A stretch of DNA of 64,000 bases from an uncultured Gammaproteobacteria bacterium (GTDB lineage Bacteria > Patescibacteriota > Patescibacteriia > Magasanikbacterales > GWA2-37-8): assembly GCA_964511375.1 (NCBI GenBank), contig CAZEEW010000003.1:10987-74986 (forward strand). The letters run 5' to 3'. Shown one piece after another: positions 12,363 to 63,634 of this stretch. A model generated the notes under the pieces. The model did not search any database. It had not been told where the DNA came from and worked only from the letters and a program-made list of their open reading frames with translations. The stretch's first letter is position 1, and each line of letters opens with the position of its first letter. Made by a program: the position numbers and the translations under genes.

Positions 12363-12468
12363 AGTTTTGACTTTTGTGACTCTTAATAGTATACTACAAA
12401 GGCCAAAAAAAGTCCAAACCTTTGCCAAATTAACAAGTAATTTGGTAAGGAAAAAAAGGATAATAAAT

Positions 12469-17769: not shown

Positions 17770-17819
17770 TTCTTTGCCTCCCTGCGCCGCGCAGGCGCTC
17801 CGTTGTCAGGGAACCAGTG

Positions 17820-32107: not shown

Positions 32108-32205
32108 TTGAATTGGAGGGTAGACAATGTGGAATGGACCATATTGCTTTTTTATTTACATTATGTTTAAATTTTTCTATCTTCAACCACTAGAAGGGGG
32201 TGGTT

Positions 32206-32421
32206 GTGAAAGATGAAGCCCGGCTTCCGAACCTCGGAAGCGAAGCGGCTCGGTTTTTCCTAGCCTTGGGGAAGGTTGCTGATATCCCAGTCAGCACAGC
32301 GGTCTCCACGGCCGGGGAAGAGAGCGCCTACTCTTTCGGGCATTGGAAGTGCCCGATTTGTGGGCGCAAGAACTTCTCGGTAGGCACGTGCCCGCAGTGC
32401 GGCACGCGACGGCCCCTCTGA
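32206..32421 (+). CDS. 71-aa zinc-ribbon protein encoded in GC-rich islet 2
   Basis: CPICG-x11-CPQCG. GC-rich codons. GTG start after aaggggg. Flanked by the 11-bp direct repeat gaagggggtgg. Confidence 0.5.
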   Translation: MKDEARLPNLGSEAARFFLALGKVADIPVSTAVSTAGEESAYSFGHWKCPICGRKNFSVGTCPQCGTRRPL

Positions 32422-32586
32422 AGGGGGTGGGGAGAGATCATGAAGCTGCCTTACTAGGGTGGGCGAGCACTCAGCAGGACTCCGCTCAACCACCTGTTGG
32501 GTTTCTGTGTATTAGGAACCCAGCAGGGGGAGATGGGCGGAGTTTTGTGTTGACTAAAAATATATTTTAGTATTTAATGGTCTGGT

Positions 32587-38547: not shown

Positions 38548-41340
38548 ATGTCTTTATTAACCAAAATATTTGGTGATCCGAATAAAAAAGTGATCGAGAG
38601 TCTTCAGCCTATCGTAGAAAAAATTAATTCCTTGGAGTCAGCCATGGTTAATTTGTCTATGAATGACTTAAAGGGAAAAACAGAAGAATTTAAAAATCGC
38701 CTAAGTAAAGGCGAGACATTGGAAGATCTTCTGCCAGAGGCGTTTGCAGTCGTTCGTGAAGTTTCAAAGCGCCTAACGGGCATGCGACATTTCGATGTCC
38801 AGCTTATGGGCGGTATCGTTTTGCATCGCGGACAGATTTCGGAAATGCGAACTGGTGAAGGTAAGACTTTGGTGGCAACTTTACCAATCTATTTAAATGC
38901 CTTAACTGGTCGGGGTGTTCATTTGGTTACCGTCAATGATTATCTGGCGAAACGTGACGCAGTTTGGATGAGCCAAATCTATGACGCACTTGGTTTAACT
39001 ATTGGTATTATCCAACAACAGAATGTTTCATATAAATATAATGCTACTGCCAGAGCAGCTGGCGAAAATCTAGCTGAGGGCAGTGAAAGTGACGAGCAGC
39101 GAGATAAAACTGGAATGTTTAAAGTTGAGAACGAATATCTAGATCGTTGTACTCGTAAAGAAGCTTACGCTTGTGATATTACCTATGGTACCAATAATGA
39201 ATTTGGTTTTGACTATCTCCGCGACAATATGGTGCAAGACTTGTCGCAAATGGTACAACGACCTTTTTATTTTGCTATCGTTGACGAAGTTGACTCTATT
39301 TTAATTGATGAAGCACGCACCCCACTTGTTATCTCTGCTCCAGCTGAAGATGCGACCGAAAAGTATTATCGCTTTGCTGACCTAGTAGCACGGTTGAAAG
39401 TTAACGAAGACTATAACGTCGATGAAAAGATGCGCTCGTCTACCTTGACAGAGGCTGGTATTAAAAAAATGGAAGAATGGTTAGGTATAGATAATATTTA
39501 CGCTGAAGGTGGTTTGGGTACAGTGCATCATGTCGAACAAGCTTTACGTGCCCATGCTTTGTTTAAACGCGATCGAGACTATGTTGTTGAAAACGGTGAA
39601 GTTATAATTGTCGATGAATTTACTGGTCGCAAAATGCCAGGTCGCAGGTATAGCGAAGGCTTGCATCAAGCCATTGAGGCGCAAGAGCGAGTTAAGATCC
39701 AACGCGAAAGCCAAACTCTTGCTACCATTACTTTCCAGAACTACTTCCGCATGTACGAAAAGTTAGCTGGTATGACTGGTACGGCGGTTACGGAAGCTGA
39801 AGAATTTGGCAAAATATATAAGCTAGAAGTTGTGGTCATTCCAACCAACAAAATTGCTCAACGTCTTGACCGCCCGGATCGTATTTACCGTACGGAAGAA
39901 GCTAAATATAAAGCCATCGCGCGGGAAGTAAAAGAACTGCAACAAAAAGGTCAGCCGGTCTTGATCGGTACTATCTCAGTGGATAAAAACGAAGCCCTAA
40001 GTCTGTTTTTAGAACGCGAAGGGATTAAACATGAAATTTTAAATGCTAAGAACCATGAGCGAGAAGGTGAAATTATTGCTCAAGCTGGCCGACCGGGTGC
40101 TGTGACTTTGGCCACAAACATGGCTGGTCGTGGTGTTGATATTATTTTAGGCGGTAATCCACCAGACAAAGAAATGGGGGACAAGGTCCGTGCTAACGGT
40201 GGTTTGTTTGTGATTGGTACAGAACGACATGAGTCACGCCGTATAGATAACCAGCTTCGTGGTCGCGCTGGTCGCCAGGGGGACCCGGGTGCTACCCAGT
40301 TTTATCTTTCTACTGAAGACGATCTTATGCGTATTTTCGCGGGTGATCGGATCCGAGCGGTTATGAAGACCCTGCGTGTACCAGATGACATGCCGATTGA
40401 GCAGAAAAGCATTACCAGTATTATTGAATCAGCCCAAAAGAAAGTTGAGGGTTTCCATTTTGATACCCGTAAGCATTTACTCGAGTTTGATGATGTCTTA
40501 AATCGTCATCGCGAAGTAATTTATGGCAAACGTAAGGTTATTTTAGAAGAGTTTACTCGCCAAAGAGAAATGATTCGGGCTAGTGAAGCAGGAAATCCAA
40601 CGGTTGAAACTCCAGAAGAAGTAGGCAAACAAAAACTGCAAGACATGATTTTAGAAATGATTGAGCAAGAACTGGAACAAATCATTTCTTTTCACACTGC
40701 TTCCGAAGAACGTAGCGAGTGGAACATGCAGGAAATTGCCGAGTCTGTCCAAACTATTTACCCTTTGACCGAAGAAGAAAAAGCTAAGCTTTTGGCTTTT
40801 AAAAATCCAAGTGCAGAAAAATTAGAATCAATCGAGGAAAGAACCAAGGCAATTGAATACTTGAATGAGCTGGCTAAGTCTAAATACGAAGAGTTGTTGA
40901 TTAAAAAAGTTCCGCATCCGGAAATGATGCTTGAGATTGAAAAGCAAGTTTTGCTTCGCGCTATTGACAATCTGTGGTTAGAACACTTAGTGGCTGTTGA
41001 TCACCTTAGAACAGGTATCGGTTTACGCGGTTATGGCCAGCGCGATCCGTTAGTTGAATACAAAAAAGAAACATACCAGATGTTTAATGAACTTCTGAGT
41101 TTAATACAAAAAGAAGTTGTCTATACTATTTATAAAGTTAGTATAGGTATTGAATTTGCACCTAGTGTCATGGCAAAAGAAAACGTGACTTTAAGTGGTG
41201 CGGCTAAAACTAGTGATGGTAATACAGCAACGCAAACCTCTAAACCAAAAATGATTGATCAAACTGGTAACGAACCAGGGCGCAATGATCCATGTCCGTG
41301 TGGAAGTGGATTGAAGTATAAAAAGTGTCATGGAAAGTAA
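38548..41340 (+). CDS. secA: preprotein translocase SecA
   Basis: Full-length SecA with a C-terminal CPCGSGLKYKKCHG zinc finger. Confidence 0.95.
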   Translation: MSLLTKIFGDPNKKVIESLQPIVEKINSLESAMVNLSMNDLKGKTEEFKNRLSKGETLEDLLPEAFAVVREVSKRLTGMRHFDVQLMGGIVLHRGQISEMRTGEGKTLVATLPIYLNALTGRGVHLVTVNDYLAKRDAVWMSQIYDALGLTIGIIQQQNVSYKYNATARAAGENLAEGSESDEQRDKTGMFKVENEYLDRCTRKEAYACDITYGTNNEFGFDYLRDNMVQDLSQMVQRPFYFAIVDEVDSILIDEARTPLVISAPAEDATEKYYRFADLVARLKVNEDYNVDEKMRSSTLTEAGIKKMEEWLGIDNIYAEGGLGTVHHVEQALRAHALFKRDRDYVVENGEVIIVDEFTGRKMPGRRYSEGLHQAIEAQERVKIQRESQTLATITFQNYFRMYEKLAGMTGTAVTEAEEFGKIYKLEVVVIPTNKIAQRLDRPDRIYRTEEAKYKAIAREVKELQQKGQPVLIGTISVDKNEALSLFLEREGIKHEILNAKNHEREGEIIAQAGRPGAVTLATNMAGRGVDIILGGNPPDKEMGDKVRANGGLFVIGTERHESRRIDNQLRGRAGRQGDPGATQFYLSTEDDLMRIFAGDRIRAVMKTLRVPDDMPIEQKSITSIIESAQKKVEGFHFDTRKHLLEFDDVLNRHREVIYGKRKVILEEFTRQREMIRASEAGNPTVETPEEVGKQKLQDMILEMIEQELEQIISFHTASEERSEWNMQEIAESVQTIYPLTEEEKAKLLAFKNPSAEKLESIEERTKAIEYLNELAKSKYEELLIKKVPHPEMMLEIEKQVLLRAIDNLWLEHLVAVDHLRTGIGLRGYGQRDPLVEYKKETYQMFNELLSLIQKEVVYTIYKVSIGIEFAPSVMAKENVTLSGAAKTSDGNTATQTSKPKMIDQTGNEPGRNDPCPCGSGLKYKKCHGK

Positions 41341-41831: not shown

Positions 41832-43922
41832 ATGCAGAAAAACAAATACGCTAAGCCAGCTGCAAAGGGGATTACCCGTTCGCAGCTACGTTGGAGGACT
41901 CTCGGAGTGCTTTTTTTGTTAGTAGTTTCGCTTTTAGTTGTCATGCCTACGTATGCCAATCGCGGTATTAATTGGGTGAACAATAAGACCAATTTAGGTA
42001 TTCCAACTTTACCAGACAAGGGTTTTAACCTGGGTTTGGATTTACAAGGTGGTGCTCACTTGGTTTACAAAGCGGATACCACTCAAGTCCAGGGCGGAGA
42101 TGTCGATTCAGCAGTCGAGGGTGTACGAGATGTTATTGAACGACGTGTCCGTGGTGGTTTGGGTGTTTCTGAGCCATTAGTACAAACCAACGAAGTTGGT
42201 GATGAACAGCGTATAATTATTGAATTACCAGGTATTACTGATGTCAAACAAGCAATCGCGATGATCGGCGAAACACCAGTATTAGAATTCAAAGAGGTAA
42301 ATGATACTCCTGCTCGGGATCTGACTAAAGAAGAAAAGAAACAAATGGACGATTTTAACAAAGCTGCTGAGAAAAAAGCACGTGAAGCTTTAGTAGCTGC
42401 CAGAAAAGGTACAGATTTTGCTGAGCTAGTTAATAAATATAGTGATGACCCAGCGGAGGTTAAACAAAAAGGTGGTAATGTTGGTTTTGTGACCTCAGAT
42501 ATTTCTCCAGAATTGTACAAATGGGCAACTGGTAAAAAAATAAATGAAGTCAGTCGTGATTTAGTTAAGGATAATGACGGACTAAATATTTTGAAAAAGA
42601 TTTCCGAGCGTGATGGTGAGAAAAAAGTTACTGCTTCACACTTGCTCTTGTGTTATAACGGTGCAACTGGCTGTACTGATCCAAAGTACACCAAAGAAGA
42701 AGCAAAAGCAAAGATCGAGGAAATAAAAAAGCAAGCCACCATTCAGAATTTTCGTGATCTAGTCAAACAATATACCACTGAACCAGGTGGAGCCGATCGT
42801 AATGGCGAACTGGGCACTTTCAGTAAAGGCCAAATGGTTCCTGCTTTTGAGGATGTGGCCTTTAGTATGCCAAATAATTCTATCTCTGATCCGGTTGAGA
42901 CCGAATTCGGTTATCACTTGATTTACAAATATGGTGAAGAAATTCCCAAGGAATATGAGTTGGCACGCGTATTTGTAAATACTAAAACCGCGACAGACAT
43001 ACTGCCCCCAGCTGATCAATGGAAGAAAACTGGTCTTTCCGGTAAACAGTTAAAGCGTGCTGAGGTGGTTGAAGACCAGCAGACTAGCCAGATTCAAGTT
43101 AGTTTAAACTTCAATGATGAAGGTACTAAACTATTCGGTGAAATTACTGAACGAAATATTGGCAAACAAGTCGCTATTTTCTTAGACGGCGAACCTTTGA
43201 GCACTCCAGTAGTTAATGAAGCCATTACTAGTGGCAGCGCAGTTATTTCTGGTGGGTTTACTTTTCAGGAAGCAAAATTATTGGCTCAACGGCTAAACTC
43301 TGGTGCTTTGCCGGTGCCAGTAGAATTAATTAGCCAACAAAGTGTTGACGCTTCTTTGGGCAGCGACTCTTTGCAAAAGAGTTTTAAGGCCGGTATCGCT
43401 GGTTTGATTGCTGTTATGCTGTTCATGATTTTGTATTACCGTTTACCCGGTATTATTTCTGTTGCAACTTTAGTCATATATGCTGCTCTAACCTTGGCCT
43501 TATCCAAAATTTTGGGGGTTACGTTAACACTTTCCGGTATTGCTGGTTTCATTCTTTCTATCGGTATGGCTGTAGATGCTAACGTTTTGGTGTTTGAACG
43601 CCTAAAAGAGGAACTGCGCACGGGTAAATCCTTAAAAGTCGCAGGAGAAGAAGCTTTTGTACGCGCTTGGTCTTCTATTCGTGATGGAAATATTACCACG
43701 TTAATTTCCTGTGTTTTACTGGTATGGTTTGGTTCCGGATTTATCCAAGGCTTTGCGGTTACTCTTGGTCTTGGTATCTTGGTGAGTATGTTAACGGCCT
43801 TTGTCTTTAGTAGGACAATTATACGCTTAGTTTTTTCTTGGTTACCAGAGAGAGGAAACTGGTTTTTTCTAGGTCACCAGTCTAAAACTCTTGAGAGTGT
43901 AGAATCTACTGTAAATAAATAA
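41832..43922 (+). CDS. secD: SecD with inserted tandem parvulin-type PPIase (PpiC/SurA-like) domains
   Basis: SecD N-terminal TM, P1 region and C-terminal six-TM core. The central inserts carry FAELVNKYSDD...GGNVGFV and ASHLLL...GELGTFSKGQMVPAFEDVAF...GYHLIY, which are parvulin signatures. Confidence 0.7.
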   Translation: MQKNKYAKPAAKGITRSQLRWRTLGVLFLLVVSLLVVMPTYANRGINWVNNKTNLGIPTLPDKGFNLGLDLQGGAHLVYKADTTQVQGGDVDSAVEGVRDVIERRVRGGLGVSEPLVQTNEVGDEQRIIIELPGITDVKQAIAMIGETPVLEFKEVNDTPARDLTKEEKKQMDDFNKAAEKKAREALVAARKGTDFAELVNKYSDDPAEVKQKGGNVGFVTSDISPELYKWATGKKINEVSRDLVKDNDGLNILKKISERDGEKKVTASHLLLCYNGATGCTDPKYTKEEAKAKIEEIKKQATIQNFRDLVKQYTTEPGGADRNGELGTFSKGQMVPAFEDVAFSMPNNSISDPVETEFGYHLIYKYGEEIPKEYELARVFVNTKTATDILPPADQWKKTGLSGKQLKRAEVVEDQQTSQIQVSLNFNDEGTKLFGEITERNIGKQVAIFLDGEPLSTPVVNEAITSGSAVISGGFTFQEAKLLAQRLNSGALPVPVELISQQSVDASLGSDSLQKSFKAGIAGLIAVMLFMILYYRLPGIISVATLVIYAALTLALSKILGVTLTLSGIAGFILSIGMAVDANVLVFERLKEELRTGKSLKVAGEEAFVRAWSSIRDGNITTLISCVLLVWFGSGFIQGFAVTLGLGILVSMLTAFVFSRTIIRLVFSWLPERGNWFFLGHQSKTLESVESTVNK

Positions 43923-43933
43923 TTTTCGACATT

Positions 43934-44857
43934 ATGAGTAACATTCCTTTTATCAAATATTCAAAGCTTTGGCTTAGTATTACAACAGCCGTCATGCTCT
44001 TTAGCATTGCTTTTCTGGTAATCTGGGGTTTAAAACCAGGCATAGATTTTACTGGAGGCTCTTTGTTGGAAGCAGAATTTAGTCAAGTTCGTCCCGATGC
44101 TAATCTAGTACGTACTTCGTTGCAGGATTGGGATCATAAAAATGCTGTTGTGCAAACTACTGGAGAAAAGGGTTTGATTATCCGGACTTCTTTTTTGAAC
44201 GAAGAAGAGCATCAAAAATTGGTACAGAATTTAGGAGATAAATTCGGCACTGAAGAGAACAAAATTAACGAGCAACGTTTCGAAACAATTGGTTCTTCAG
44301 TAAGTAAGACTTTGCGTGAACGCGCTGTCTGGGCGATAATTTTAGTTAACTTAGGTATTATCGCCTATATCGCATACGCTTTTCGTAAGGTTTCTCGTCC
44401 AGTCGCAAGCTGGAAATATGGCGCTATTGCTATCTTTGCCCTTGTTCATGATGTTTTGCTCGTTATGGGTGTGTTTGCCATATTAGGTCGTTTTTCGGGC
44501 ACTGAAGTCGATATCGCTTTTGTGGTCGCTCTTCTCACTGTTCTTGGTTACTCTGTTAACGATACGATCGTTGTGTTTGACCGCGTCCGTGAAAATTTGT
44601 TACACCGCTATTCCGATGACTTCTCTGAAACCGTTAACTATGGTTTGAACCAAACTCTAATGCGCTCCATTAACACTACCTTGACCACCTTACTACCGTT
44701 GTTCGCCCTCTATTTCATCGGTGGAGAGACAATTAAAAATTTCTCTCTAGCACTTTTGATCGGTATCGCGAGCGGGGCCTATTCCTCGATATTTATTGCC
44801 AGTCCGCTTTTGGCAATGGTAGAAAAGTGGCAAACCAGACGTTTCGCCAAAGCCTAG
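43934..44857 (+). CDS. secF: protein translocase subunit SecF
   Basis: SecF topology and motifs. Adjacent to secD. Confidence 0.85.
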   Translation: MSNIPFIKYSKLWLSITTAVMLFSIAFLVIWGLKPGIDFTGGSLLEAEFSQVRPDANLVRTSLQDWDHKNAVVQTTGEKGLIIRTSFLNEEEHQKLVQNLGDKFGTEENKINEQRFETIGSSVSKTLRERAVWAIILVNLGIIAYIAYAFRKVSRPVASWKYGAIAIFALVHDVLLVMGVFAILGRFSGTEVDIAFVVALLTVLGYSVNDTIVVFDRVRENLLHRYSDDFSETVNYGLNQTLMRSINTTLTTLLPLFALYFIGGETIKNFSLALLIGIASGAYSSIFIASPLLAMVEKWQTRRFAKA

Positions 44858-44872
44858 AGTGTCAAATAAGAT

Positions 44873-44906
44873 AAAACCCCTTCCAAAATTTGGAAGGGGT
44901 TTTTGT
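44873..44906 (+). terminator. secF terminator
   Basis: aaccccttcc-aaaattt-ggaaggggtt plus a T-run. Confidence 0.65.
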
Positions 44907-44961
44907 TATCTTGCCTTTGTGGTATAATATTTGTGAACAATTTAGTAAATTTTTTCAAATT

Positions 44962-45123
44962 ATGAACGATACTACCGCCCGGCATTTAGTTTGTATTTTG
45001 GCAACACTAATTACTGGTTTTGCCTATTATGCCGGGTATGTTTCTGGGACACGTGGTTGGTGGTGGACAATTTTTGGTTGTCTTATCATCTACGGCGGGG
45101 TATATAGGATAATAAGTAAGTAA
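44962..45123 (+). CDS. 53-aa two-TM membrane protein (VirB3-like position)
   Basis: Trimmed from the 77-aa track ORF to the ATG after the extended -10 tggtataat. Two hydrophobic helices with a WWW motif. Immediately upstream of the VirB4-N-domain paralog. Confidence 0.4.
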   Translation: MNDTTARHLVCILATLITGFAYYAGYVSGTRGWWWTIFGCLIIYGGVYRIISK

Positions 45124-45125
45124 AT

Positions 45126-46541
45126 ATGGGTCTTTGGGTTATTGATACACCCTTTGGTTTTAGCCTTGATCTCACCCTTTGGCAGAGTATTTTAATGTTA
45201 CGCGAGTGGGAATTGGTCAAAGTCTTGTTTGCCATTGGTGGTTGGACCGCCGCTTGGTTGTTGTTCTTTTTTATTGGAAAAGAATGCTGGTTAGCGTTTC
45301 GTCAGGCGAAATATACCAAGGGTTGGGAGTGGGTATTATTGGCAGTTGACATTCCACCCATGTTTATCCAGACTCCTAAGGCAGTTGAACAGATCTTTGC
45401 TCATTTAAGCGGTATTCAATCCACGCCGAATTTTGGTGAAAAATATTGGCAGGGGGAAAAGCAAAGATATTTTAGTTTAGAAATTGTTAGTATAGAAGGG
45501 TATATCCAGTTTTTAATTCGCACTGAAAAATCTCTGCGCGACTTAGTCGAAGCAGCCATATATGCTCAGTATCCAGAAGCCGAGATTACTGAAGTAGAGG
45601 ATTACGTGGATGTCTTGCCTAAGACTTATCCAAATCCTGAATACGACATTGCCGCGGGAGAGTTTAAACTTATTAATGACGAGCCGTTTCCAATTCGCAC
45701 TTATCCAAGCTTTGAATACAGTTTGAGTAAGGATGTCGTGTTCAGTGACCCGATGGCCGCCCTGCTCGAAAACTTTAGTCGGATCGGTCATGGTGAAAAT
45801 TTCTGGATGCAGATAATTATTGAGCCAACAGATAACGCTTGGAAGCAAAAAGGGATAGATCTTGTAAAAAAGATTGTCGCGAACAAAAAAGAAGTTAAAC
45901 CGGTTCCTTTGGTTGCTAAAGCCACCGAAGGTTTGGTCGGTGAAGCAGTTAATATAATAAAATGGTCTTTTGACGGTGGAGACGAACCTAAAAAAGAAGA
46001 ACCAGCTGGCAAAGTTCAGGACTTAACTCCTGGCGCTAAAAATACCGTTGAGTCTATTGAAGACAAAATATCTAAGATTGGTTTTAAAACAAAGTTAAGG
46101 GTCTTGTACATTGCCAAGAAAGAGACCTTTAACCCCACGAAATGCATGAAAGGTTTTGTGGGTGCTCTCTACCAATTTAATATTAACGTGCGTAATGGTT
46201 TTAAGGGGCATAAATCTACAAGTGGTACTTACTGGTTCAAGGAATATAAGATTAGAGAATTAAAAAGAAAGTTTGCGGAAGCCGTAAGAAAGAGAAAAAT
46301 TAAAACCTTTGGTAACCCTTACATTTTGAATATTGAAGAACTGGCGACCATCTGGCACTTCCCATTGCCGTTTGTTAAAACGCCTCTTATGCAAAAGCAA
46401 ATTAGTAAAACCGCTGAACCCCCACTTGGTTTGCCAATTGAAACTATGGACGGCCCGCTTAAAAAGAAAGTTACTCCACCTCCCGAGGGGCCAACTAAAC
46501 CACTTGAACCAAGTACTCCTGAAGATTTACCTTACGGTTAA
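45126..46541 (+). CDS. paralog of the N-terminal domain of the VirB4/HerA-like ATPase (60575-63133), lacking the P-loop ATPase domain; Pro/Lys-rich C-terminus
   Basis: Collinear similarity to 60575-63133. LVEAAIYAQYPEAEITEVEDY aligns with FLEQQIHAQYPHAEISEEPDY, and FPIRTYPSFEY...DPMAALLENF aligns with FPFKSYKKMDTDPLVALLNPL. An N-terminal TM is present. No Walker A. Confidence 0.55.
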   Translation: MGLWVIDTPFGFSLDLTLWQSILMLREWELVKVLFAIGGWTAAWLLFFFIGKECWLAFRQAKYTKGWEWVLLAVDIPPMFIQTPKAVEQIFAHLSGIQSTPNFGEKYWQGEKQRYFSLEIVSIEGYIQFLIRTEKSLRDLVEAAIYAQYPEAEITEVEDYVDVLPKTYPNPEYDIAAGEFKLINDEPFPIRTYPSFEYSLSKDVVFSDPMAALLENFSRIGHGENFWMQIIIEPTDNAWKQKGIDLVKKIVANKKEVKPVPLVAKATEGLVGEAVNIIKWSFDGGDEPKKEEPAGKVQDLTPGAKNTVESIEDKISKIGFKTKLRVLYIAKKETFNPTKCMKGFVGALYQFNINVRNGFKGHKSTSGTYWFKEYKIRELKRKFAEAVRKRKIKTFGNPYILNIEELATIWHFPLPFVKTPLMQKQISKTAEPPLGLPIETMDGPLKKKVTPPPEGPTKPLEPSTPEDLPYG

Positions 46542-46555
46542 ACACATAAACAAAA

Positions 46556-46581
46556 ATATCCACCAAAGTGGATATTTTTAG
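46556..46581 (+). terminator. terminator after 45126-46541 gene
   Basis: atatccac-caaa-gtggatat plus a T-run. Confidence 0.6.
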
Positions 46582-46589
46582 TAAACACA

Positions 46590-46646
46590 CTTCTCGGTAC
46601 TCTAGAAAATACATAGACATATATTCTCTAGGGCACGACCGAGAAG
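46590..46646. repeat. GC-clamped long hairpin with AT-rich interior at 3' end of islet-3 gene
   Basis: Outer stem cttctcggt/accgagaag (9 bp) enclosing about 39 nt. The internal ctctag direct repeat is AT-rich. Confidence 0.45.
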
Positions 46647-46693
46647 CGGATGCACCCCTGGCGTGGGGCGCCATGGCAGGGTGTTCGGGGGGG

Positions 46694-46843
46694 CTAGCGG
46701 ACGATCCAGCAGATGAAACGCTGGTCGTCCGGGTTGGAGTAACAGGGCTTCAGGTCCGCCTTGAGGGCGAACCAGGAGATGACGAGAAATGTCAGGACAG
46801 CGAACGCGAGGCCCGCCGCCCTCTTCCAAGTGAACGCCGCCAC
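46694..46843 (-). CDS. 49-aa single-TM small protein encoded in GC-rich islet 3 (GTG start)
   Basis: Not in the ORF track. RBS aggagg, 5 nt before the GTG. GC3 about 87%. Sequence MAAFTWKRAAGLAFAVLTFLVISWFALKADLKPCYSNPDDQRFICWIVR. Confidence 0.45.
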   Translation of the reverse strand: MAAFTWKRAAGLAFAVLTFLVISWFALKADLKPCYSNPDDQRFICWIVR

Positions 46844-47102
46844 CGGAACCTCCTACTGATTTTTCTCAACTGCAACGGGAAGAGCGAGCCCTTCGTCTCT
46901 TCCGGCAGATGCAGTCGTTCCTGTATCTTCTCCGGCCGCTTCGGTAGAAGCCGCCAGATGATTCCCATGAGAACCGCGATCCCGATACCCAACCCCATTC
47001 TTACCTCCTGAGTTGGGTTGGTGCGCCTAGACGTGAACTTCACGCCAGACAACGACTAAACATACTCTTTTTGTCTGGTTTTGTCAATGTGATTAATGTG
47101 CA

Positions 47103-47145: not shown

Positions 47146-47664
47146 TTAAGCCAATATTTCTTGTGCTGTCCGTTTGTTTTGCCAGTATTTTATCGCCTCA
47201 TATCCACCGACCAAGAGAGTTACATATGTGAGGTCGCCAAGGAGGGTATTACGGAAGAAGGGAATAGCAGCGACATAGCTCGTCGCTAACCCAGAGAGGT
47301 TGTGGGTGTACATAGTACCAAAGGCCCAAACTGCGAAGTTGGTTAGTACAAAGAAAAGCAAACTATTAAAAATTGTGCTGCCAAAAATATTTCGGAAGTT
47401 TTTTTGTTTTTTTACTACTTGCCCTACTAGAAAAGCAATGGCAAAGCACCCGTATACCGTCGCCATAATCGGCCAAGAATAAAAACCAATAACTAAATCA
47501 CTTAAAAACATGGCGGCTAAGGGGATGAAGAACATTTTACGTGGTAGATATAATCCACCGAATAAGGCGATCGCGGCAATCGGTGCAAAGTTTGGTGCGT
47601 GCGGCAATAACCTTGCCAAGGCTCCAAGAGCAATTAAGAGATAAATTGGTAAGTATTTTTTCAT
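47146..47664 (-). CDS. polytopic membrane protein (ECF-S-component/DUF-like, 5-6 TM)
   Basis: Trimmed to ATG 47664 (MKKYLPIYLL). Hydrophobic throughout. Confidence 0.45.
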   Translation of the reverse strand: MKKYLPIYLLIALGALARLLPHAPNFAPIAAIALFGGLYLPRKMFFIPLAAMFLSDLVIGFYSWPIMATVYGCFAIAFLVGQVVKKQKNFRNIFGSTIFNSLLFFVLTNFAVWAFGTMYTHNLSGLATSYVAAIPFFRNTLLGDLTYVTLLVGGYEAIKYWQNKRTAQEILA

Positions 47665-47717
47665 ATTATCCGAATTATTTAGATGGTTAATTATATCACC
47701 ATTAGAGCAGTTTGTCA

Positions 47718-49499
47718 TTATTTAGACTTATCTCTAAATTTAATTGTTATATAAAGGCCGAGGATAATCAAGGTGGCAATCGATGCGAAGAAAATACGTT
47801 TGATCCAAATATGATAAACCCTATTTTCTTCTTCGGGCTTCGAACTAGTTGTGTTGTTTATTTCTTCCACTGTCTGTTGAGTATCTGTCGCAATCTTTTC
47901 CCCGAGAATATTTTTAGTATCAACGGTTTCTTTTGTCGGTTGTTTATTAATATTCCTTGATTGGGGGATATATTTAATTGGCTGCGAAATAACAGGTGGT
48001 GTTGTAGTAGTCTCCCTTGATTCAGTTGAAGTAGACGTATCCATTTCCACTGTGGTAGTCGGTGTACTAGTAACCATATCCAAAGTAGTGGTCGGTGTAG
48101 AAGTTGGAATAATTATTTCAACCGTAGAAGTAGGAGTGGTGGTGGTTGTTTCAATCACAGGATTATATAGAAAATTACCGCCTCCAACGTTTGGTACTGG
48201 TACTGTTTCAGTAAGCGAACTATCTGTTAAAATTATTGGCCAGCTTTTCCCCAGTAAGGCTGGCACAGCGTGTTTAGTGCCGAACCAGTCGATACCATCA
48301 GCTGAAAAAGAACTAGTATAGTAGCCATCGCTATTCGTCCCTTCGACCAATGACCCAGTCATAACATGCCAAGGATTTTTGCCGACGCTGTTAAACCAAT
48401 CGTTTTGGTTTTCACCCAAAGCATTGATACCCATCATGGCCCACGAGGTAGTAAGAGCATCAGAGGAGCCAAAACCCCATCCACCATCGTTTAATTGGGT
48501 ATTTTTAAGGTAATTCTTAGCATTGGTATAGATATTGGCTTCCACAGCCTTCCCGTGGTTCTCCGCGTATTTTAGAGCGTTTATAGCTGCTCCAGTAATG
48601 TCAGCACCGCTCCAGCCGTCCCAGGTAAAGGATCCATCTGCCTGTTGGTCAGCTATTACTGTCCTTATAATAACGTCCACTGAGTCAGAGTTAGTTTCGC
48701 CTCCTGTCACCAAGCTAAAGAGGCCAAAAATATCATCATTAATACCACGGAGACCGAATTGTTCATCTTTAACGCAGCGAGTCTTAATTTCGTTATTGAG
48801 GTCAGTAATACTTTTTTGGTTTGGGTTGAATCCACCCGCCATTAAACCCAGAGCATGGCGTGGATAGCTTGCGCAATAGTTTAATTCGCTAGAGCCAGAC
48901 AAGTCGTAGCTCTTTAAATAGTCTAAGAGCGAGTCATTTCCTTTTTTTACATTTTTGGAATAAATATTATTGGCTCCCAATGACATAGCTACCCATTCCG
49001 AAGTCGGGCCATCAATAATCATGCCGTCGTCACTCTGTTGGTTTTTGAAGAAGTTCAAAATCTTATTAACTGCACTTTGAATTAAATTTTGATCTACGGG
49101 CGAAGGGGAGGTGGTAGTATTAATGCCTCCACTACCTGAAGTGTTGCTGTCTGTTGAGGTGGGGGTAGTAGTTGCTATTTCAATGGCTGTAGTTGCGTCC
49201 ACAACCTCGGTAGTGGTGGTAGCGGTGGTGGTTGTTGTTGTCGTAACTACATCCAAGGTAGAAGTAGGAAGTGTAGATGTATTTTCTGCTGTGCTACTCA
49301 CAGTATCTGTTGTGGAGCTAGTGACAGTTATCTCGGCTGTTTGCGGTGTAGAAGAAGGAAATGAGTCGTCGTTGAGTAAGTTTTCTTCAGTTGGGGGAGG
49401 TGAGACAGTTTCGTCAGCCAGAACTTGGTGAGTTAATACAAAACTTAATACCAATATAGTCGCTATTCCTCCCAAAAACTTCTTACTTGCTCGTTTCAT
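47718..49499 (-). CDS. secreted Thr-rich surface protein with alpha/alpha-toroid (prenyltransferase/terpene-cyclase-like) central domain and C-terminal TM anchor
   Basis: Signal peptide. Poly-Thr linkers. W/G/D-rich repeats of the kind seen in terpenoid cyclase/PFTB-repeat folds. C-terminal TM IATLIILGLYITI. Confidence 0.4.
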   Translation of the reverse strand: MKRASKKFLGGIATILVLSFVLTHQVLADETVSPPPTEENLLNDDSFPSSTPQTAEITVTSSTTDTVSSTAENTSTLPTSTLDVVTTTTTTTATTTTEVVDATTAIEIATTTPTSTDSNTSGSGGINTTTSPSPVDQNLIQSAVNKILNFFKNQQSDDGMIIDGPTSEWVAMSLGANNIYSKNVKKGNDSLLDYLKSYDLSGSSELNYCASYPRHALGLMAGGFNPNQKSITDLNNEIKTRCVKDEQFGLRGINDDIFGLFSLVTGGETNSDSVDVIIRTVIADQQADGSFTWDGWSGADITGAAINALKYAENHGKAVEANIYTNAKNYLKNTQLNDGGWGFGSSDALTTSWAMMGINALGENQNDWFNSVGKNPWHVMTGSLVEGTNSDGYYTSSFSADGIDWFGTKHAVPALLGKSWPIILTDSSLTETVPVPNVGGGNFLYNPVIETTTTTPTSTVEIIIPTSTPTTTLDMVTSTPTTTVEMDTSTSTESRETTTTPPVISQPIKYIPQSRNINKQPTKETVDTKNILGEKIATDTQQTVEEINNTTSSKPEEENRVYHIWIKRIFFASIATLIILGLYITIKFRDKSK

Positions 49500-50064
49500 A
49501 TTTCCAGGTAATAGAATCGTTATTTTTTAAAATATAGTTAGAGATACCTACTTGGGATGCTTCGCCGTTTACATAAAAGAACCAGTATTTGCCAGTTAAA
49601 CGATCGCTTTTTACTCCATTGATGCTATCCACAAACTTTCCTAGGCTGCCAAATTCTTTTGTTACCCATGCCAACTTACCTTGGGCTTCAAGTTCTGCCA
49701 TGGCAGTGTACAAACTGGTATTTTCGTCATGTGAAATCGCATGGGGCGTACCATTAATTTCAATCGTTATTTTAACTGGTTTGGCCTTCTCACTGATTTC
49801 CGGAATTGTTACGCGCGGTTCGTTGTTTTTGGTATTACTATTGTTCTCGGGAGGTGTCTGGTTTTTTAGAATTTCTCGACGTTCTATCGCTGGAGCAGGT
49901 GGCGGAACAACATCTTCGGTAGTAGTGCTAACAGGTTCCTTATTTTTGTTTTCGCTGTATTTATCTCCAAACTGGGAGAAAAGTAAATACGCACCACTAA
50001 AACCGGCGATGAAAATTAAGACAGCGATTAAACGAACTAGGGCAGGGGATAAAGGTTTAGACAT
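49483..50064 (-). CDS. membrane-anchored protein with C-terminal DUF4430-like domain
   Basis: N-terminal TM, then a Pro-rich linker. The C-terminal block is ITIEINGT...GKYWFFYVNG. Confidence 0.4.
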   Translation of the reverse strand: MSKPLSPALVRLIAVLIFIAGFSGAYLLFSQFGDKYSENKNKEPVSTTTEDVVPPPAPAIERREILKNQTPPENNSNTKNNEPRVTIPEISEKAKPVKITIEINGTPHAISHDENTSLYTAMAELEAQGKLAWVTKEFGSLGKFVDSINGVKSDRLTGKYWFFYVNGEASQVGISNYILKNNDSITWKYETSK

Positions 50065-50288
50065 AATAAAAAATCTCTGTCCAAGCAGAGAAAAAAGATC
50101 TAAAAACAGAGTTCCTGCTCGGGATTTAAAGATATTTGAAGACCGGACTTGTCCCGAATTTGCTCGGGCCTTACCGTTGCGGCACAGTGGAGGAATTACA
50201 CCTCACTTCCACAAATATCTTTTTAAATTGTTAGTATAGAGAGATTAACATTTAGGAAACGGACTGTCAAACAGGAGTTATCAACAGG

Positions 50289-54530: not shown

Positions 54531-54614
54531 ACTTTTGTTAGTTTAAAAGTTATATCTTTATCTTCTCGGATCGTGCATATACTTGTCAAAGGGACAAAAC
54601 TTTTTAATACAAAA

Positions 54615-54677
54615 ACCACCCCGAAAACCCTCCTCCCTCTGAACCTAAACTTTAGGTCAAGAGGGAGAAGCGGGGTG
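54615..54677. repeat. long nested imperfect hairpin (three stacked stems) in islet 4
   Basis: Three stacked stems: ccaccccg/cggggtgg, ctccctct/agagggag and acctaa/ttaggt. Confidence 0.5.
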
Positions 54678-54756
54678 GCTTCTGCGAAAGGAGCGATGAG
54701 GCCGCCCGGCACGGTGCCGGGGGCGGGGATAGGGGACAGTGCGGCTTAGACGCCGG

Positions 54757-54939
54757 CTAGCGGATCAGGAGCGCCGAGCGGCGCCGGGCGGGTTCCTGGT
54801 GGCGGCCGTTGGCGGCCGGGGGCGGGACCTCGGGAACGTCGGTGCGCGGCTCCGAGGCCGCGCGCCGGATCTGCTCGGAGAGCTGCTGCAGGTGGGGGGA
54901 TCCGATCCCCCGGGTCTTCTTGTAGACGCGCTGCTTCAT
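54757..54939 (-). CDS. 60-aa basic, Pro/Arg-rich hydrophilic protein encoded in GC-rich islet 4
   Basis: GC3 about 95%. RBS ggtggag, 7 nt before the ATG. The hairpin ccctgc-N6-gcaggg lies immediately upstream. Other frames here are also open because of composition. Confidence 0.4.
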   Translation of the reverse strand: MKQRVYKKTRGIGSPHLQQLSEQIRRAASEPRTDVPEVPPPAANGRHQEPARRRSALLIR

Positions 54940-55038
54940 GATCTATCTCCACCCTGCGGGCTTGCAGGGCCCGAATATTAAAGCACACTGGAGGGAAAAA
55001 ATCAAGATTGGGCATATTCGGTTGTTAATAAGTTAGAT

Positions 55039-58936: not shown

Positions 58937-60562
58937 TTACTTTACTACTTCGCCACCAAAGTCAGCTGCCAGGTTATGTATATCTTCTGGTTTAGTTTCG
59001 GATTGAGATTGCTCTTCTCGGAGCTCACAAACCAGAATGACATTTTCATTTAAAATTTGGGATAAAGCCTCTTCAACAATTTTTTTATTTTTCTTCTCTT
59101 CTATTTTTTCTTTATGGAAAGAATAGGGGAAAGAGATGTGCAAACCATACTCTGAGGTTTTTTCCAAAGTCGACATTTTTAGTACGAAGGTTAGGGAGTG
59201 ATTAGTTTCGGAGATTTTATCAATCGCTTTTGGCCACACACCTCGTATTTGTTCAATACCGCTTTGGAGAGGATGTTTGTGCGTAATGGAAGAAATAGCA
59301 GTTTTTAAAGTATTTTTTAAACCGCTTTTTTCCTTATTTTCCTCGGCTAACTCGGTTATAGGAATGGCTGACAAGTCATCTTTCGTTGAATTAAACTTTG
59401 TTGCAGGTATTGTAGCATCTTCGTTTGATCCGCCAAGCGGAGGGGGTTGTGGCGGCTCAGGCTTATTATTTATTTTTTCCAAATTAAAATCAATAGCAAG
59501 AATTTCCAAAGGCAGCGAAGGAATTGGTGAAGACTTGATCTGTTGTCGGGCTTCAATCATAGCGTTAGTAAGGCGGCTGTAAAATTCGCTAGATTTGGCC
59601 TGTGATAAAGCGGTTAATTCCTTTAGGGTTTCATTGCTGTAGGTGGCTCGGTCAACAAGTTTGACATCTACTTGTAACAACAATAAATGACGTAAGACCT
59701 CCAGACAGTCTAATGCCAATTGTTCAAAGTTAGCTCCGTTATCGTTTAGGGATTGTAAGGTTTGTAAAGATTTGTTTGGTTTGCTTTCAATGATACCGGA
59801 TAAATACTTAATGACAGCATCAATATTTGATGGCGGCAGTATGGCACTGGCGTTTTCGGCGGTAATTTTTTTCTCGTTAATGGAAAATACTTGGCCGAGT
59901 AAACTCTCGGCGTCCCTTAAACAGCCCTCGCTTTTGCCGACGATCCTTTCTAATACTTCTTTTGCTATTTTAATATCTTCCGCCTTGGCAATTTCTTCTA
60001 GCCGTTTAAACATTTCTTCGTAGCCAACTTTTTTAAAGTTAAATCTTTGGCAACGAGATAAAATTGTCGCCGGAAGTTTGTGCATCTCGGTTGTGGCGAG
60101 AATAAATACAACGTGCGCTGGAGGCTCTTCGATCGTTTTAAGTAGTGCGTTAAAAGCGCTGGTAGATAGCATGTGCACCTCGTCAATAATAAAGACCTTA
60201 AAAGGGGAGCGAGTTGGTTTAAATTGAGCGTTTTCAATAATATTCTCGCGGACATTATCTACACCAGTGTGCGAGGCGGCATCAATTTCAATTACATCAA
60301 TACTACGCCCAGCGCTAGTTTCTATACAGCTTTGGCATTTATCACACGGTTCAAATTCTCCAGGCTTCCGATTTTCGCAATTAACCGCTTTAGCTAAAAG
60401 ACGGGCGATCGTAGTTTTACCGACGCCGCGTGGACCAGAAAATAAATAAGCATGCGCGACTTTTTTAGTCGCGATTTGGTTTTGGATGGTGGTAGTAATA
60501 GCCTCCTGACCGGTCACTTCCGCGAAGGTCTGCGGCCGGTATTTTCGGTAAAGAGTTGTCAT
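58937..60562 (-). CDS. dnaX: DNA polymerase III subunit gamma/tau
   Basis: GPRGVGKTT Walker A, the DEVHML region and SRC-type zinc module residues. Confidence 0.9.
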   Translation of the reverse strand: MTTLYRKYRPQTFAEVTGQEAITTTIQNQIATKKVAHAYLFSGPRGVGKTTIARLLAKAVNCENRKPGEFEPCDKCQSCIETSAGRSIDVIEIDAASHTGVDNVRENIIENAQFKPTRSPFKVFIIDEVHMLSTSAFNALLKTIEEPPAHVVFILATTEMHKLPATILSRCQRFNFKKVGYEEMFKRLEEIAKAEDIKIAKEVLERIVGKSEGCLRDAESLLGQVFSINEKKITAENASAILPPSNIDAVIKYLSGIIESKPNKSLQTLQSLNDNGANFEQLALDCLEVLRHLLLLQVDVKLVDRATYSNETLKELTALSQAKSSEFYSRLTNAMIEARQQIKSSPIPSLPLEILAIDFNLEKINNKPEPPQPPPLGGSNEDATIPATKFNSTKDDLSAIPITELAEENKEKSGLKNTLKTAISSITHKHPLQSGIEQIRGVWPKAIDKISETNHSLTFVLKMSTLEKTSEYGLHISFPYSFHKEKIEEKKNKKIVEEALSQILNENVILVCELREEQSQSETKPEDIHNLAADFGGEVVK

Positions 60563-60574
60563 AGTCTAATCATT

Positions 60575-63133
60575 TTACATTGAGGCTTCGGTTAAATCAA
60601 GAGTCTCAGTTTTCGAGTCGCCAAGCTTGGCTCGTTCCATAATTTCTGCTTCCACAATCTCACGTGGACGACCATATTTTAAACGAGAGAGTTCTTTAAT
60701 GGCGGCGGCTAATTCTTTATTGCCGGGCTTTGGCGGGTAGGTCATCATGTTAAAAGGTTTAGCTGCCGTATTGTCGATTAGAAGTTTAGTATAAGCGGTA
60801 TATTGCTCAACGTTCATAAGGTCGTAAGCTGAGAAAACTGGAGCATATTCTTTGGCCAGTATTTCAGCATCTTCGACACCAATGCGGAAAGTAACTAAAG
60901 TACCAGCGTTACCAAGCACAGCATCGCGTACGGTATTCTTGCCTTTATTGTCTACTAACTGATTCAAATACTGATGAGCGATAATTAACTCTAAACGGTA
61001 TTTACGAGCTTCAGACAAAATGGTTGCAATCGAGTCAGTAATGAAGTTCTGGAACTCGTCAATGTACAAGAAAAAGTCATGACGCTGGTCTTCGGGTAGA
61101 GAAGCGCGTTCAAGAGCAGTCATTTGCAATTTGGATACGATAATCAAACCTAAAAGGTTAGAGTTAATCTCACCAACCAAACCTTTGGCCAGGTTTACTA
61201 GGAGAATTTTTTTCTTATCCATTATTTCCCGGAAGTTGAAGCCAGAGCGAGACTGACCAATGATATTTCTAATCATTTGGTTTTCCACAAAACGTCCCAC
61301 TTTGGAAATTAAATAACCTAACATTTCGGATTTATGGAAATCAGAAGTTTTGGCCATTTCTTTGTTCCAGAAGGCTAAGACCATTGGATCGTTTAACTTT
61401 GCTTTCCATTCTTCAACATATTCTTCATCCGTAAACATGCGAGGAATTTCCGCAATAGTACCAGGGTTTTCCATGTCGGCCATGAGTGTCAACATGACGT
61501 TTCTCATTTGATGCTCAAACATTGGACCAATCATGGAAGGGTCAGTAACTAATTTGTAGAATATGGAAACCATTTCCTGACAAACAAAGTCTTTTTGTTC
61601 CTCGGTTTTCGCTTCTAACATGTTTAAACCAATCGGTCGTTCAATGTCCGCAGGACTGAAGTAAATTACGTCATCCGCACGCTCTTTGGGCACGTGTTGT
61701 AAAACATATTCTACAAAATCTCCATGTGGATCAATAACACAAACACCTTCACCGTTAATAACATCCTGGACAGCTAGATTTTGGATAAAAACAGATTTAC
61801 CACTACCAGATTTACCGATGGTATATAAGTGACGTCGACGGTCGGCTCGCTTCATGCGGACGATAGACTCTTCACCGCGATAAACCGATCTACCAAGTAT
61901 GATACCTTCTTTCGGCATATTAATCGGTGGGGGAGCCTTGCGTGCACCCAGCCAGTTAATATGTGGAGTTTCCGTGGTGGGGATTGGCATGTGCCAGAAA
62001 CTCGACATTTCTTCTGTATTTGCGACCATTTCGTATTTTTCATGGAAGGATCGATAAATTGAATCCTGTATAATCTTTTTTTGGTTGCGTGGGAGTGCGG
62101 CACCAAAAGAATTACCGTAACGGTAAATATTATATTGACTGAACGAATTGATCATGTTTTCGAGGTTCAGCTGAGCTTTCTCTTTGGATGGTCCAGAACT
62201 AATCAAACGAATGGTCATTTCTAAACCACCATGACTAATTTTTTCTTCCATTCCTTTAACCATCTCTTCTTCCATTTGAGTTAGGTGGTATTGTTGTGAT
62301 ACTGAATCTTGACGGGTCGGGTCAGCCTTTTTGGGGAATACTACCTTTTTCCATTTTAAAAGGCTCCGCATGAATGAACTACGTTTAGCCACGTATTCAA
62401 ATTTTTGTCCTTCTTTTATATCTCTGATCATTTGTACGCCCTGACGTCGCCACTTTGGACCAGCTGGGCGAACAACGTATTGGATTAATGCCCCCTCACT
62501 ATCTAAGATCTTACTTAAGGGGTTGAGCAGCGCGACGAGCGGATCCGTGTCCATCTTTTTATAACTCTTAAATGGAAAGGCGGAGCGGAATTTAAACCAT
62601 AAATAAGCCCCAACAATGTGGCACTCTGGTTGAAAGATGTTATAATCCGGTTCTTCGCTTATCTCAGCATGGGGGTATTGGGCGTGGATTTGTTGCTCCA
62701 GGAAATCGCGGTATTTGTCTGGTACGGCGAGGTAAAAAGAAATCTTACTATCCTTTACAACAATCTCAAAAGAGAAATTATCTCTTCGTCCAGTAAACCA
62801 TTTCACCAGGCCCTTTTCGCGTTTTAAACCAGAAATCGAAGAAAAAATTGTATCCGCAATCGCAATGCGTTCGCGGATTTGGTTAATATTTTCCTCTTGG
62901 TTGGAGTTTTGTTGTCCTTCGTTTTTTCTTTCTTTTGGAACACGTATTAAAAGAATTGTTTTATGAAATGCCTTACCCTCCTTACCCAAAAGATGAAAGA
63001 AGGAACGGAGAATATAGAGGAGGGAAATGAAGGCAAAGAAACCGATTATCCCCATTAATAGATAAAACAACTCCGGTGTTTGGAGGATATAGTCGACCGC
63101 ACTCTTTAGATAAAAGAGATATTCGTTTTCCAT
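60575..63133 (-). CDS. VirB4/TraC/HerA-like P-loop ATPase (DUF87-type) with N-terminal TM segment
   Basis: Walker A GKSGSGKS and Walker B FFLYIDEFQNF. 852 aa. The N-terminal TM plus domain is paralogous to 45126-46541. Confidence 0.55.
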   Translation of the reverse strand: MENEYLFYLKSAVDYILQTPELFYLLMGIIGFFAFISLLYILRSFFHLLGKEGKAFHKTILLIRVPKERKNEGQQNSNQEENINQIRERIAIADTIFSSISGLKREKGLVKWFTGRRDNFSFEIVVKDSKISFYLAVPDKYRDFLEQQIHAQYPHAEISEEPDYNIFQPECHIVGAYLWFKFRSAFPFKSYKKMDTDPLVALLNPLSKILDSEGALIQYVVRPAGPKWRRQGVQMIRDIKEGQKFEYVAKRSSFMRSLLKWKKVVFPKKADPTRQDSVSQQYHLTQMEEEMVKGMEEKISHGGLEMTIRLISSGPSKEKAQLNLENMINSFSQYNIYRYGNSFGAALPRNQKKIIQDSIYRSFHEKYEMVANTEEMSSFWHMPIPTTETPHINWLGARKAPPPINMPKEGIILGRSVYRGEESIVRMKRADRRRHLYTIGKSGSGKSVFIQNLAVQDVINGEGVCVIDPHGDFVEYVLQHVPKERADDVIYFSPADIERPIGLNMLEAKTEEQKDFVCQEMVSIFYKLVTDPSMIGPMFEHQMRNVMLTLMADMENPGTIAEIPRMFTDEEYVEEWKAKLNDPMVLAFWNKEMAKTSDFHKSEMLGYLISKVGRFVENQMIRNIIGQSRSGFNFREIMDKKKILLVNLAKGLVGEINSNLLGLIIVSKLQMTALERASLPEDQRHDFFLYIDEFQNFITDSIATILSEARKYRLELIIAHQYLNQLVDNKGKNTVRDAVLGNAGTLVTFRIGVEDAEILAKEYAPVFSAYDLMNVEQYTAYTKLLIDNTAAKPFNMMTYPPKPGNKELAAAIKELSRLKYGRPREIVEAEIMERAKLGDSKTETLDLTEASM

Positions 63134-63634
63134 TTAAAGTTTAATAATACCTTCCTCAGTTTTTTTGAGATTTAATATGCGATCCGTTTTAATCTTTGCT
63201 TCTTGTTCTAAGAAAAAACGATTAACCCCAGGTAAGAGTTTGAGCCATTGCAAAATCAAGGCAAAAACCTTTTTCGCTTTCACTTTTGTCCCCTTCATTA
63301 AGGCTCGTATCTTCTTAGCTGTTTCTTCCCCCTTAATTTTAAATTCTTGTTTGGCAACTGGAGACAAACGTGAAAAAGCATCGCCCAATCCTTCTTCCAT
63401 TATCTTTTCAATTTTAACAGTTACCTCATCCCGAACTTGAGGAATAGTAGTGGGTTTTCGACGTAAAGTCGGGCCAAATTTTGACACCTCAGGGGTACGA
63501 TTGGCAGTTTCAGTTTTTTGGCCTTCCGGTTTATTCGGAGCTGCTTCACGAGGGGCAACTTTTTCAACCTGAGATTCTGGTGCCCGGGGTAATTCAGCAG
63601 AGATTTTCTTTTCGGTAATATTATTAGTTGACAT
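63134..63634 (-). CDS. hypothetical basic/Pro-rich protein immediately upstream of the ATPase (stop abuts ATPase start)
   Basis: 166 aa. P/E/K-rich N-terminus and a helical C-terminus. Confidence 0.4.
   Translation of the reverse strand: MSTNNITEKKISAELPRAPESQVEKVAPREAAPNKPEGQKTETANRTPEVSKFGPTLRRKPTTIPQVRDEVTVKIEKIMEEGLGDAFSRLSPVAKQEFKIKGEETAKKIRALMKGTKVKAKKVFALILQWLKLLPGVNRFFLEQEAKIKTDRILNLKKTEEGIIKL

Follow-up and report, generated by a model that had tools for sequence, protein, structure and literature searches.

The proteins considered here are best compared with two ATPases of type IV secretion systems (T4SSs). In VirB4, an N-domain that makes membrane and partner contacts is followed by a RecA-like motor; the protein relies on VirB3 and is encoded in T4SS clusters with VirB3-, VirB6- and VirB8-type genes. 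Coupling proteins (VirD4, TrwB, TraD, DotL, Cag-beta) are anchored in the membrane by their N-terminus, in the classical members through two transmembrane helices with no domain of ~350 residues between membrane and motor, and are encoded with relaxases or T4SS genes. The VirB4 layout can also be divided between genes, as in pGO1-type systems, where the N-part is a separate protein, TrsD, next to TrsE (PMC12102498). Here we analyse a stretch of 64,000 nt, hereafter the window (contig CAZEEW010000003.1, assembly GCA_964511375.1; 40% GC), from Magasanikbacteria (class ABY1), a lineage of Patescibacteria. It encodes a 471-aa protein that carries the domain DUF8128 (Pfam PF26449) with no ATPase and, 14 kb away, an 852-aa ATPase in which the same domain is fused to a motor. 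We consider it likely that the 471-aa protein is the membrane-anchored, VirB4-N-like subunit of a coupling-protein-like ATPase that is split between two genes. Patescibacteria have two such motors, which are ancient paralogs: one is fused and encoded next to dnaX, the other is split, with its anchor gene next to secDF.

The genes at issue are the following, with positions counted along the window:

44962-45123, + strand: open reading frame (ORF) of a 53-aa mini-protein with two helices (ORF listing, transmembrane segments)
45126-46541, + strand: ORF of the stand-alone DUF8128 protein, 471 aa (ORF listing, alignments)
60575-63133, - strand: ORF of the fused DUF8128-motor ATPase, 852 aa (ORF listing, domain matches, alignments)
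63134-63634, - strand: ORF of 166 aa with no known domain, abutting the start of the fused ATPase gene

The first-pass annotation, made from the sequence alone, had read the 471-aa protein as an ATPase-less, collinear paralog of the N-domain of the 852-aa ATPase, and this relationship is statistically significant. BLASTP aligns the two over 362 columns (residues 88-439 of the 471-aa and 94-409 of the 852-aa protein) at 24% identity and E=7e-28. Moreover, hhalign with a profile of 45 orthologues against the N-half of the ATPase gives a probability of 99.6 and E=2.6e-24 over fused residues 17-409, which include the N-terminal membrane helix. The shared motif blocks named in that annotation all align in BLASTP: IYAQYPEAEITEVEDY of the shorter protein with IHAQYPHAEISEEPDY of the longer, FPIRTYP with FPFKSYK, and SDPMAALL with TDPLVALL. 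PF26449, which the Pfam entry describes as a domain of unknown function, is assigned to both proteins and to nearly all close homologues; we take membership from the collection's precomputed annotation together with the pairwise and profile alignments made here. Local Pfam and NCBIfam scans, in a set without the PF26449 model, returned no usable match for the 471-aa protein.

The 471-aa protein comprises a short N-terminal segment, one transmembrane helix (~30-51), the alpha/beta DUF8128 domain (~68-413), and a Pro-rich C-terminal tail; the motif AEPPLGLP occupies residues 431-437, and the chain ends in PEDLPYG. A motif scan found neither a Walker A nor a Walker B motif in it, and residues 414-471 are Pro-rich and predicted to be disordered, in line with the missing P-loop and Pro-rich tail noted in the first reading. 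The 852-aa ATPase likewise has one transmembrane helix (19-50), with DUF8128 extending to ~409, the junction motif APPPINMP, and then the motor, with Walker A GKSGSGKS at 440 and Walker B FLYIDE at 688. In both proteins the single hydrophobic helix lies at the N-terminus and is followed by basic residues, which suggests an N-out/C-in orientation with DUF8128 in the cytoplasm.

Evidence for a split motor comes from loci outside the window. Two sets of loci were surveyed: 80 species loci, which are Magasanik-type, and 80 metagenome loci retrieved with a diverse family alignment as query, 65 of which had enough downstream DNA to be informative. At two loci of distant members (L086 and L087), secD-secF and the DUF8128 gene are followed at once by a gene for a coupling-protein-like ATPase that has neither DUF8128 nor a transmembrane helix. 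Such an ATPase-only gene stands directly 3' of the stand-alone DUF8128 gene, on the same strand, at 53 of the 65 informative metagenome loci, mostly with gaps of -4 to +30 nt, and the encoded proteins have no transmembrane helix. These soluble motors measure ~520-780 aa and often end in a Lys-rich tail; that of L087 carries a treble-clef zinc ribbon (PF23477) and that of L086 repeated CxxC in its tail, features that point weakly to nucleic-acid binding. The L086 gene (9828-12252) is called as two ORFs, one of 86 aa with the Walker A region and one of 719 aa, which looks like a frameshift or an assembly error.

The two products complement each other almost to the residue. Whereas the alignment of the stand-alone protein ends at fused residue 409, that of the ATPase-only protein from L057 spans residues 408-832 of the fused form (43% identity, E=1e-126), so that both meet at the junction ...APPPINMP / KEGIILGRS. 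Given operonic linkage at 53 of 65 loci, the stand-alone protein is best understood as one half of a split motor, and the meeting of the split pair at the very junction of the fused form points to two ancient paralogous motors. The survey of relatives found the stand-alone form to be widespread, and it displaces the earlier suggestion that the protein is a decapitated decoy or stator. At one metagenome locus of the split clade, L129 (5968-8874), the DUF8128 ORF runs in frame into the ATPase, giving a protein of at least 969 aa that ends at the contig end; either the two genes fused independently here or a stop codon was lost.

The ATPase-only family is large, strongly conserved and free of PF26449, and many of its members are labelled Magasanikbacteria. 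In that group the genes stand alone among housekeeping genes (L168, L169), and at L057 anchor and motor share one contig at a distance of 7.3 kb. These observations agree with a published census in which 2,918 Patescibacteria genomes yielded 5,713 VirD4-like proteins, roughly two for each genome, with few encoded close to virB4 (PMC12102498).

A short motif recurs where the two halves would meet. The disordered tail of stand-alone proteins varies in length; it almost always ends in PPxNLP(F/I/V) where the ATPase gene is adjacent, and the same motif type follows the DUF8128 domain of the window protein (AEPPLGLP) and marks the domain-motor junction of the fused protein (APPPINMP). We propose PPxNLP-type motifs as candidate docking elements. 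Magasanik-type proteins end instead in PEDLPYG (as in the window), in PPEELPYG or in unrelated acidic sequence.

At the sequence level the motor resembles coupling proteins (VirD4/TrwB/TraD) and not VirB4. The 852-aa protein passes the Pfam cut-offs for T4SS-DNA_transf, TrwB_AAD_bind and TraG-D_C, scoring 42.1 bits on PF02534 (cut-off 20.1) and 37.3 bits on PF10412 (cut-off 20.5), and two ATPase-only relatives score 54.7 and 33.7 bits on PF10412. NCBI names the family 'type IV secretion system DNA-binding domain-containing protein'. The VirB4 model TIGR00929, however, gives it 19.2 bits against a cut-off of 643, with no match to PF03135 (CagE_TrbE_VirB), and neither model matches the 471-aa protein. 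The earlier label 'VirB4-like ATPase' is therefore wrong for the motor sequence, and the 471-aa protein, having no motor, is not itself a coupling protein.

In predicted fold, the domain resembles the N-domain of VirB4. An AlphaFold2 model of the 471-aa protein (predicted local distance difference test, pLDDT, 72; predicted template modelling score, pTM, 0.64) was compared with the PDB by Foldseek, and the top 11 matches were all TrwK/VirB4 of R388 (E 2.6e-5 to 7.6e-4; PDB 7o42, 7o43, 8rtb, 8rtd), which makes VirB4 the top fold match and the only one to recur consistently. The fused protein, modelled likewise, aligns to the same VirB4 over ~720-790 columns at E ~1e-7, whereas DotL and Cag-beta structures match its motor half only, at 16-17% identity. 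Judged by predicted fold, R388 VirB4 appears to be the sole match both for DUF8128 and for the complete two-domain layout. A profile search against PDB sequences returned chance matches only. The fused paralog appears to have the layout of VirB4, an N-domain and then a motor, but DUF8128 proteins carry their own transmembrane helix where VirB4 relies on VirB3, fall short of the VirB4 sequence models, have a motor nearer to coupling proteins, and are encoded in secDF and dnaX neighbourhoods instead of a T4SS cluster. Conversely, they share the motor match and N-terminal membrane anchoring with coupling proteins, yet have one transmembrane helix plus DUF8128 before the motor and occur as two copies per genome in secDF and dnaX contexts. 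No relaxase or T4SS gene appeared among the roughly two dozen ORFs scanned out of ~60 large ones in the window, nor among the listed genes of related loci. Most Patescibacteria homologues of type IV coupling proteins (T4CPs) lie far from virB4, and relaxases are rare (PMC12102498).

We propose that in Magasanikbacteria the gene for the split motor was relocated to another part of the genome and a 53-aa two-helix protein was gained upstream of the anchor gene, the pair becoming a short operon of its own. The anchor would sit in the membrane N-out/C-in, display DUF8128 on the cytoplasmic face, and recruit or organise a soluble hexameric motor, possibly through the PPxNLP motifs at the end of the domain and at the C-terminus. 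Two separate chains would then reproduce the arrangement that the fused paralog has within one. As a guess, anchor and motor together would form a translocase at the membrane, of the VirB4/VirD4/FtsK-HerA class, and our best guess for its substrate is nucleic acid, because the motor is coupling-protein-like and because of the Lys-rich and zinc-ribbon tails of ATPase-only proteins.

The mini-protein has hydrophobic segments at 6-25 and 36-52, joined by a strongly conserved GY-SG--GWWW turn within the consensus MSDNxIRHLVAFxATxICxLAYxAGYxSGxxGWWWTxFxVLIIYGGVYKII. The first-pass annotation correctly placed a protein with two transmembrane segments immediately upstream of the DUF8128 gene: the spacing in the window is 2 nt on the same strand, and a homologue lies directly 5' at 76 of the 80 species loci, usually with a gap of 1-20 nt. 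Among the metagenome loci it is confined to those without an adjacent ATPase-only gene (about ten, all Magasanik-type), apart from one weak tblastn match in L103, a distribution that marks it as a lineage-specific addition accompanying relocation of the motor gene.

The likeness to VirB3 that had been proposed for it is positional only and limited to this single lineage. Like VirB3, which is encoded upstream of VirB4, the mini-protein precedes a VirB4-N-like protein, though only in the Magasanik-type arrangement, and at 53 aa it is far shorter than VirB3 (~90-135 aa). Of the 39 Pfam families that match 37 orthologues at E<=1, the 25 most frequent do not include VirB3; the matches listed are weak, sub-threshold ones to generic transmembrane hairpins (YgaP-like_TM, 14 of 37 orthologues; TrbC/VirB2, 6 of 37). 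Furthermore, hhalign against pSK41 TrsC found nothing, and local Pfam and NCBIfam scans gave nothing usable for the 53-aa protein. On the side of the fused motor, tblastn places the 166-aa ORF directly 5' of the ATPase gene in all 12 of the related loci that have room for it; Pfam and NCBIfam have no match for its product, which is probably a partner or subunit of the fused motor given that conserved position.

Stand-alone DUF8128 proteins form a large family. A word-indexed search found more than 3,172 relatives of the 471-aa protein, the best 120 of which are almost all 440-500 aa long and, with one exception, carry PF26449. An exhaustive profile search returned 2,511 clusters at 50% identity, 883 of them below 1e-30, with the best 150 all of stand-alone length. 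The protein is encoded in at least 563 species-level genomes, and 82 positions are invariant among 45 orthologues. Many of the species-representative metagenome-assembled genomes with the locus are titled 'uncultured Gammaproteobacteria bacterium', and one 'Candidatus Udaeobacter', evidently placeholder or wrong labels. Median identities to the window proteins, taken over the same related loci, rank as follows:

Fused motor domain: 84%
Fused DUF8128 domain: 62%
SecF: 59%
SecD: 57%
Stand-alone DUF8128: 50%
DnaX: 49%
Mini-protein: 48%

The fused motor domain is thus more conserved than SecD, SecF and DnaX, so its function is probably central to these minimal, host-dependent bacteria.

Several explanations compete with a split motor. 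In VirB4, the N-domains mediate the pairing of inner with outer subunits, and by analogy the stand-alone protein might co-assemble with the fused 852-aa ATPase through DUF8128-DUF8128 contacts, serving as a non-catalytic stator or regulator, which we regard as unlikely but the strongest of the alternatives. Both proteins have the domain and the single N-terminal helix; at ~25 of the 80 Magasanik-type loci no more than 10 kb separate the anchor gene from the fused ATPase gene, which is on the opposite strand; and the lineage has lost the adjacency of the ATPase-only gene, with a drifted C-terminal motif in some members. Most other lineages, however, translationally link the anchor gene to the ATPase-only gene, its obvious partner. 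The two DUF8128 paralogs are ancient and, at 24% identity, far apart, a probable partner of its own, the 166-aa protein, is conserved upstream of the fused ATPase, and nearness to the fused gene may merely reflect conserved gene order in a small genome. The same proximity nevertheless weighs against the split motor, as the anchor might serve the fused motor there, and so do other observations. The replacement of PPxNLP in some Magasanik-type proteins may reflect a change of partner. The 64-kb window lacks the ATPase-only gene: tblastn with ATPase-only relatives matches it only at 60584-61900, within the fused gene. The fused model reaches pLDDT 70 but a pTM of only 0.46, and the VirB4 fold matches have low template modelling scores (0.31-0.38, and 0.2 over full length). 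Finally, a t4cp homologue, which may or may not carry DUF8128, proved non-essential for epibiotic growth of S. epibionticum (PMC12102498).

It is less probable still that the 471-aa protein is a TrsD-type T4SS part, and the mini-protein a VirB3 or VirB2-like pilin, serving a VirB4 machine encoded elsewhere. The VirB4-N-like fold would fit, as would the six sub-threshold TrbC/VirB2 matches, and the order of a small transmembrane gene and then an N-domain gene resembles trsC-trsD of pSK41. Indeed, the trsC-trsD-trsE series of pGO1/pSK41 (MPF-FATA), in which a small membrane protein, a VirB4-N-like protein and an ATPase follow one another, embodies the same split logic as the DUF8128 and ATPase-only genes. 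TrsD homologues, remote relatives of the VirB4 N-part, are moreover abundant in Patescibacteria, but mostly next to virB4 (PMC12102498), which makes them a different gene set from the DUF8128 genes, found next to secDF and, in other lineages, next to the VirD4-like motor gene. TrsD has 227 aa against 470-600 aa for stand-alone DUF8128 proteins, and its partner is VirB4 in a conjugation operon, whereas that of DUF8128 is a VirD4/TrwB-like motor in a chromosomal housekeeping context. In hhalign, the 45-sequence profile gave nothing with TrsE and a probability of 0.3 with pSK41 TrsD, the latter a weak test since the target is a single sequence. The mini-protein matches neither VirB3 nor TrsC, no T4SS genes were seen around the DUF8128 gene in the window or in related loci with genes listed, and the 471-aa protein has no tblastn match in plasmid or phage collections. 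A decaying fragment or annotation artefact of a once-fused ATPase gene would account for a protein that ends where the ATPase domain would start, and for a compositionally foreign, GC-rich islet at the spot of the ATPase gene in other lineages. Across the 80 species loci, however, the ORF keeps its full length, at 42-85% identity, together with its invariant motifs and its C-terminus, stand-alone members number in the thousands, and the gene has its own terminator. The first-pass annotation had named an ATPase remnant in another frame as the sign of a pseudogene; tblastn with ATPase-only relatives finds none in any frame downstream of the ORF in the window. Conservation already refutes this explanation, to which we give next to no weight, and together with the missing remnant it rules out a pseudogene.

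The first reading also held that the architecture had not been described. The domain itself was already known to Pfam as DUF8128, and a TrsD/TrsE split is on record (PMC12102498). The pairing of fused and split forms, the operon partner and the link to the VirB4 fold appear undescribed: we found no paper on them in the searchable library, where neither PF26449 nor DUF8128 occurs in any paper. Wang et al. 2023 do not mention VirD4, T4CP or FtsK in their main text, and a 2026 preprint on RNA feeding by a Patescibacterium has nothing on DUF8128 or VirD4-like ATPases. A role of these motors as a replacement for FtsK was also considered; it is weakened by the mention of FtsK alongside cell division in papers on the Saccharibacterium TM7x.

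A broader and more doubtful proposal, which we advance tentatively, is that DUF8128 plus motor, fused and split, constitutes an unrecognised, near-universal and extremely conserved membrane translocase of Patescibacteria, independent of the VirB4 system. If this holds, such an architecture, VirB4-type in its N-domain and VirD4-type in its motor, could represent an intermediate that survives between the two lineages of T4SS ATPases, and the substrate could be nucleic acid crossing the membrane of host-dependent cells. The census left open whether the two or so VirD4-like ATPases per genome that lie far from virB4 serve other uses (PMC12102498). These orphan ATPases would now gain an anatomy in which both copies depend on DUF8128, one in cis and the other through a separate anchor. 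The likely subunits of such a two-component machine would be the anchor, the motor, the 166-aa protein that accompanies the fused copy and, in its own lineage, the mini-protein, with PPxNLP as candidate docking motif. DUF8128 motors may also bear on the divergence of VirB4 and coupling proteins.

Within the window, the stand-alone gene is flanked by secA, a NUDIX gene, secD and secF on one side and by a B12-riboswitch operon on the other, while the fused gene lies between the 166-aa ORF and dnaX and adjoins dnaX and a C39-like peptidase gene. The remaining features of these neighbourhoods are:

38548-41340, + strand: secA
between secA and secD, + strand: NUDIX gene
41832-43922, + strand: secD
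43934-44857, + strand: secF
44873-44903, + strand: intrinsic terminator hairpin 3' of secF (14-bp stem with 6 GC pairs, then a T-run)
44920-44928, + strand: extended -10-like element TGgTATAAT (read from the sequence; 34 nt 5' of the mini-protein start)
46551-46580, + strand: terminator-like hairpin with a T-run directly 3' of the DUF8128 stop codon (13-bp stem)
58937-60562: dnaX, beside the fused ATPase gene

The first hairpin stands between the secDF unit and the mini-protein/DUF8128 unit; together with the second it delimits the pair as a short transcription unit of its own. The TGgTATAAT element is a candidate promoter element, although a consensus promoter scan did not report it, as there was no -35 match.

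On the far side of the DUF8128 gene, an adenosylcobalamin (AdoCbl) riboswitch (50078-50234, 64.7 bits) heads an operon on the - strand (47146-50234) that encodes a DUF4430 protein, a Thr-rich surface protein of 593 aa in which squalene-cyclase-like repeats are faintly recognisable, and a DUF6580 protein. This operon, likely a unit for cobalamin capture or uptake, is kept beside the DUF8128 gene in many relatives. Elsewhere in the window, the ORFs at 92-2281 (+ strand, 729 aa), 5738-8827 (+ strand, 1029 aa) and 10047-12629 (- strand, 860 aa) have no Pfam match at E<=1e-4.

Four intergenic islets (17501-17800, 32201-32550, 46601-47050 and 54601-55000) have 54-60% GC against 40% for the window and show no significant DNA similarity to one another. 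The third (46601-47050), placed between the terminators of two convergent flanking transcription units, matches no RNA family in Rfam. GC-rich islets occupy the same spot 3' of the DUF8128 gene in L006, L017, L034, L064, L068, L077, L082 and L003; in relatives the flanks of these islets align and the core does not. By eye, the minus strands of the window islet (46694-47052) and of L006 (2160-2770) encode tiny hydrophobic peptides starting with MG..I..AV, after which comes PK(R/K)PE; this suggests small, fast-evolving membrane-peptide genes of foreign composition. Additionally, L003 carries the core of a diversity-generating retroelement (accessory protein bAvd plus reverse transcriptase RVT_1; 10762-12179) 1.3 kb 3' of its stand-alone DUF8128 gene.

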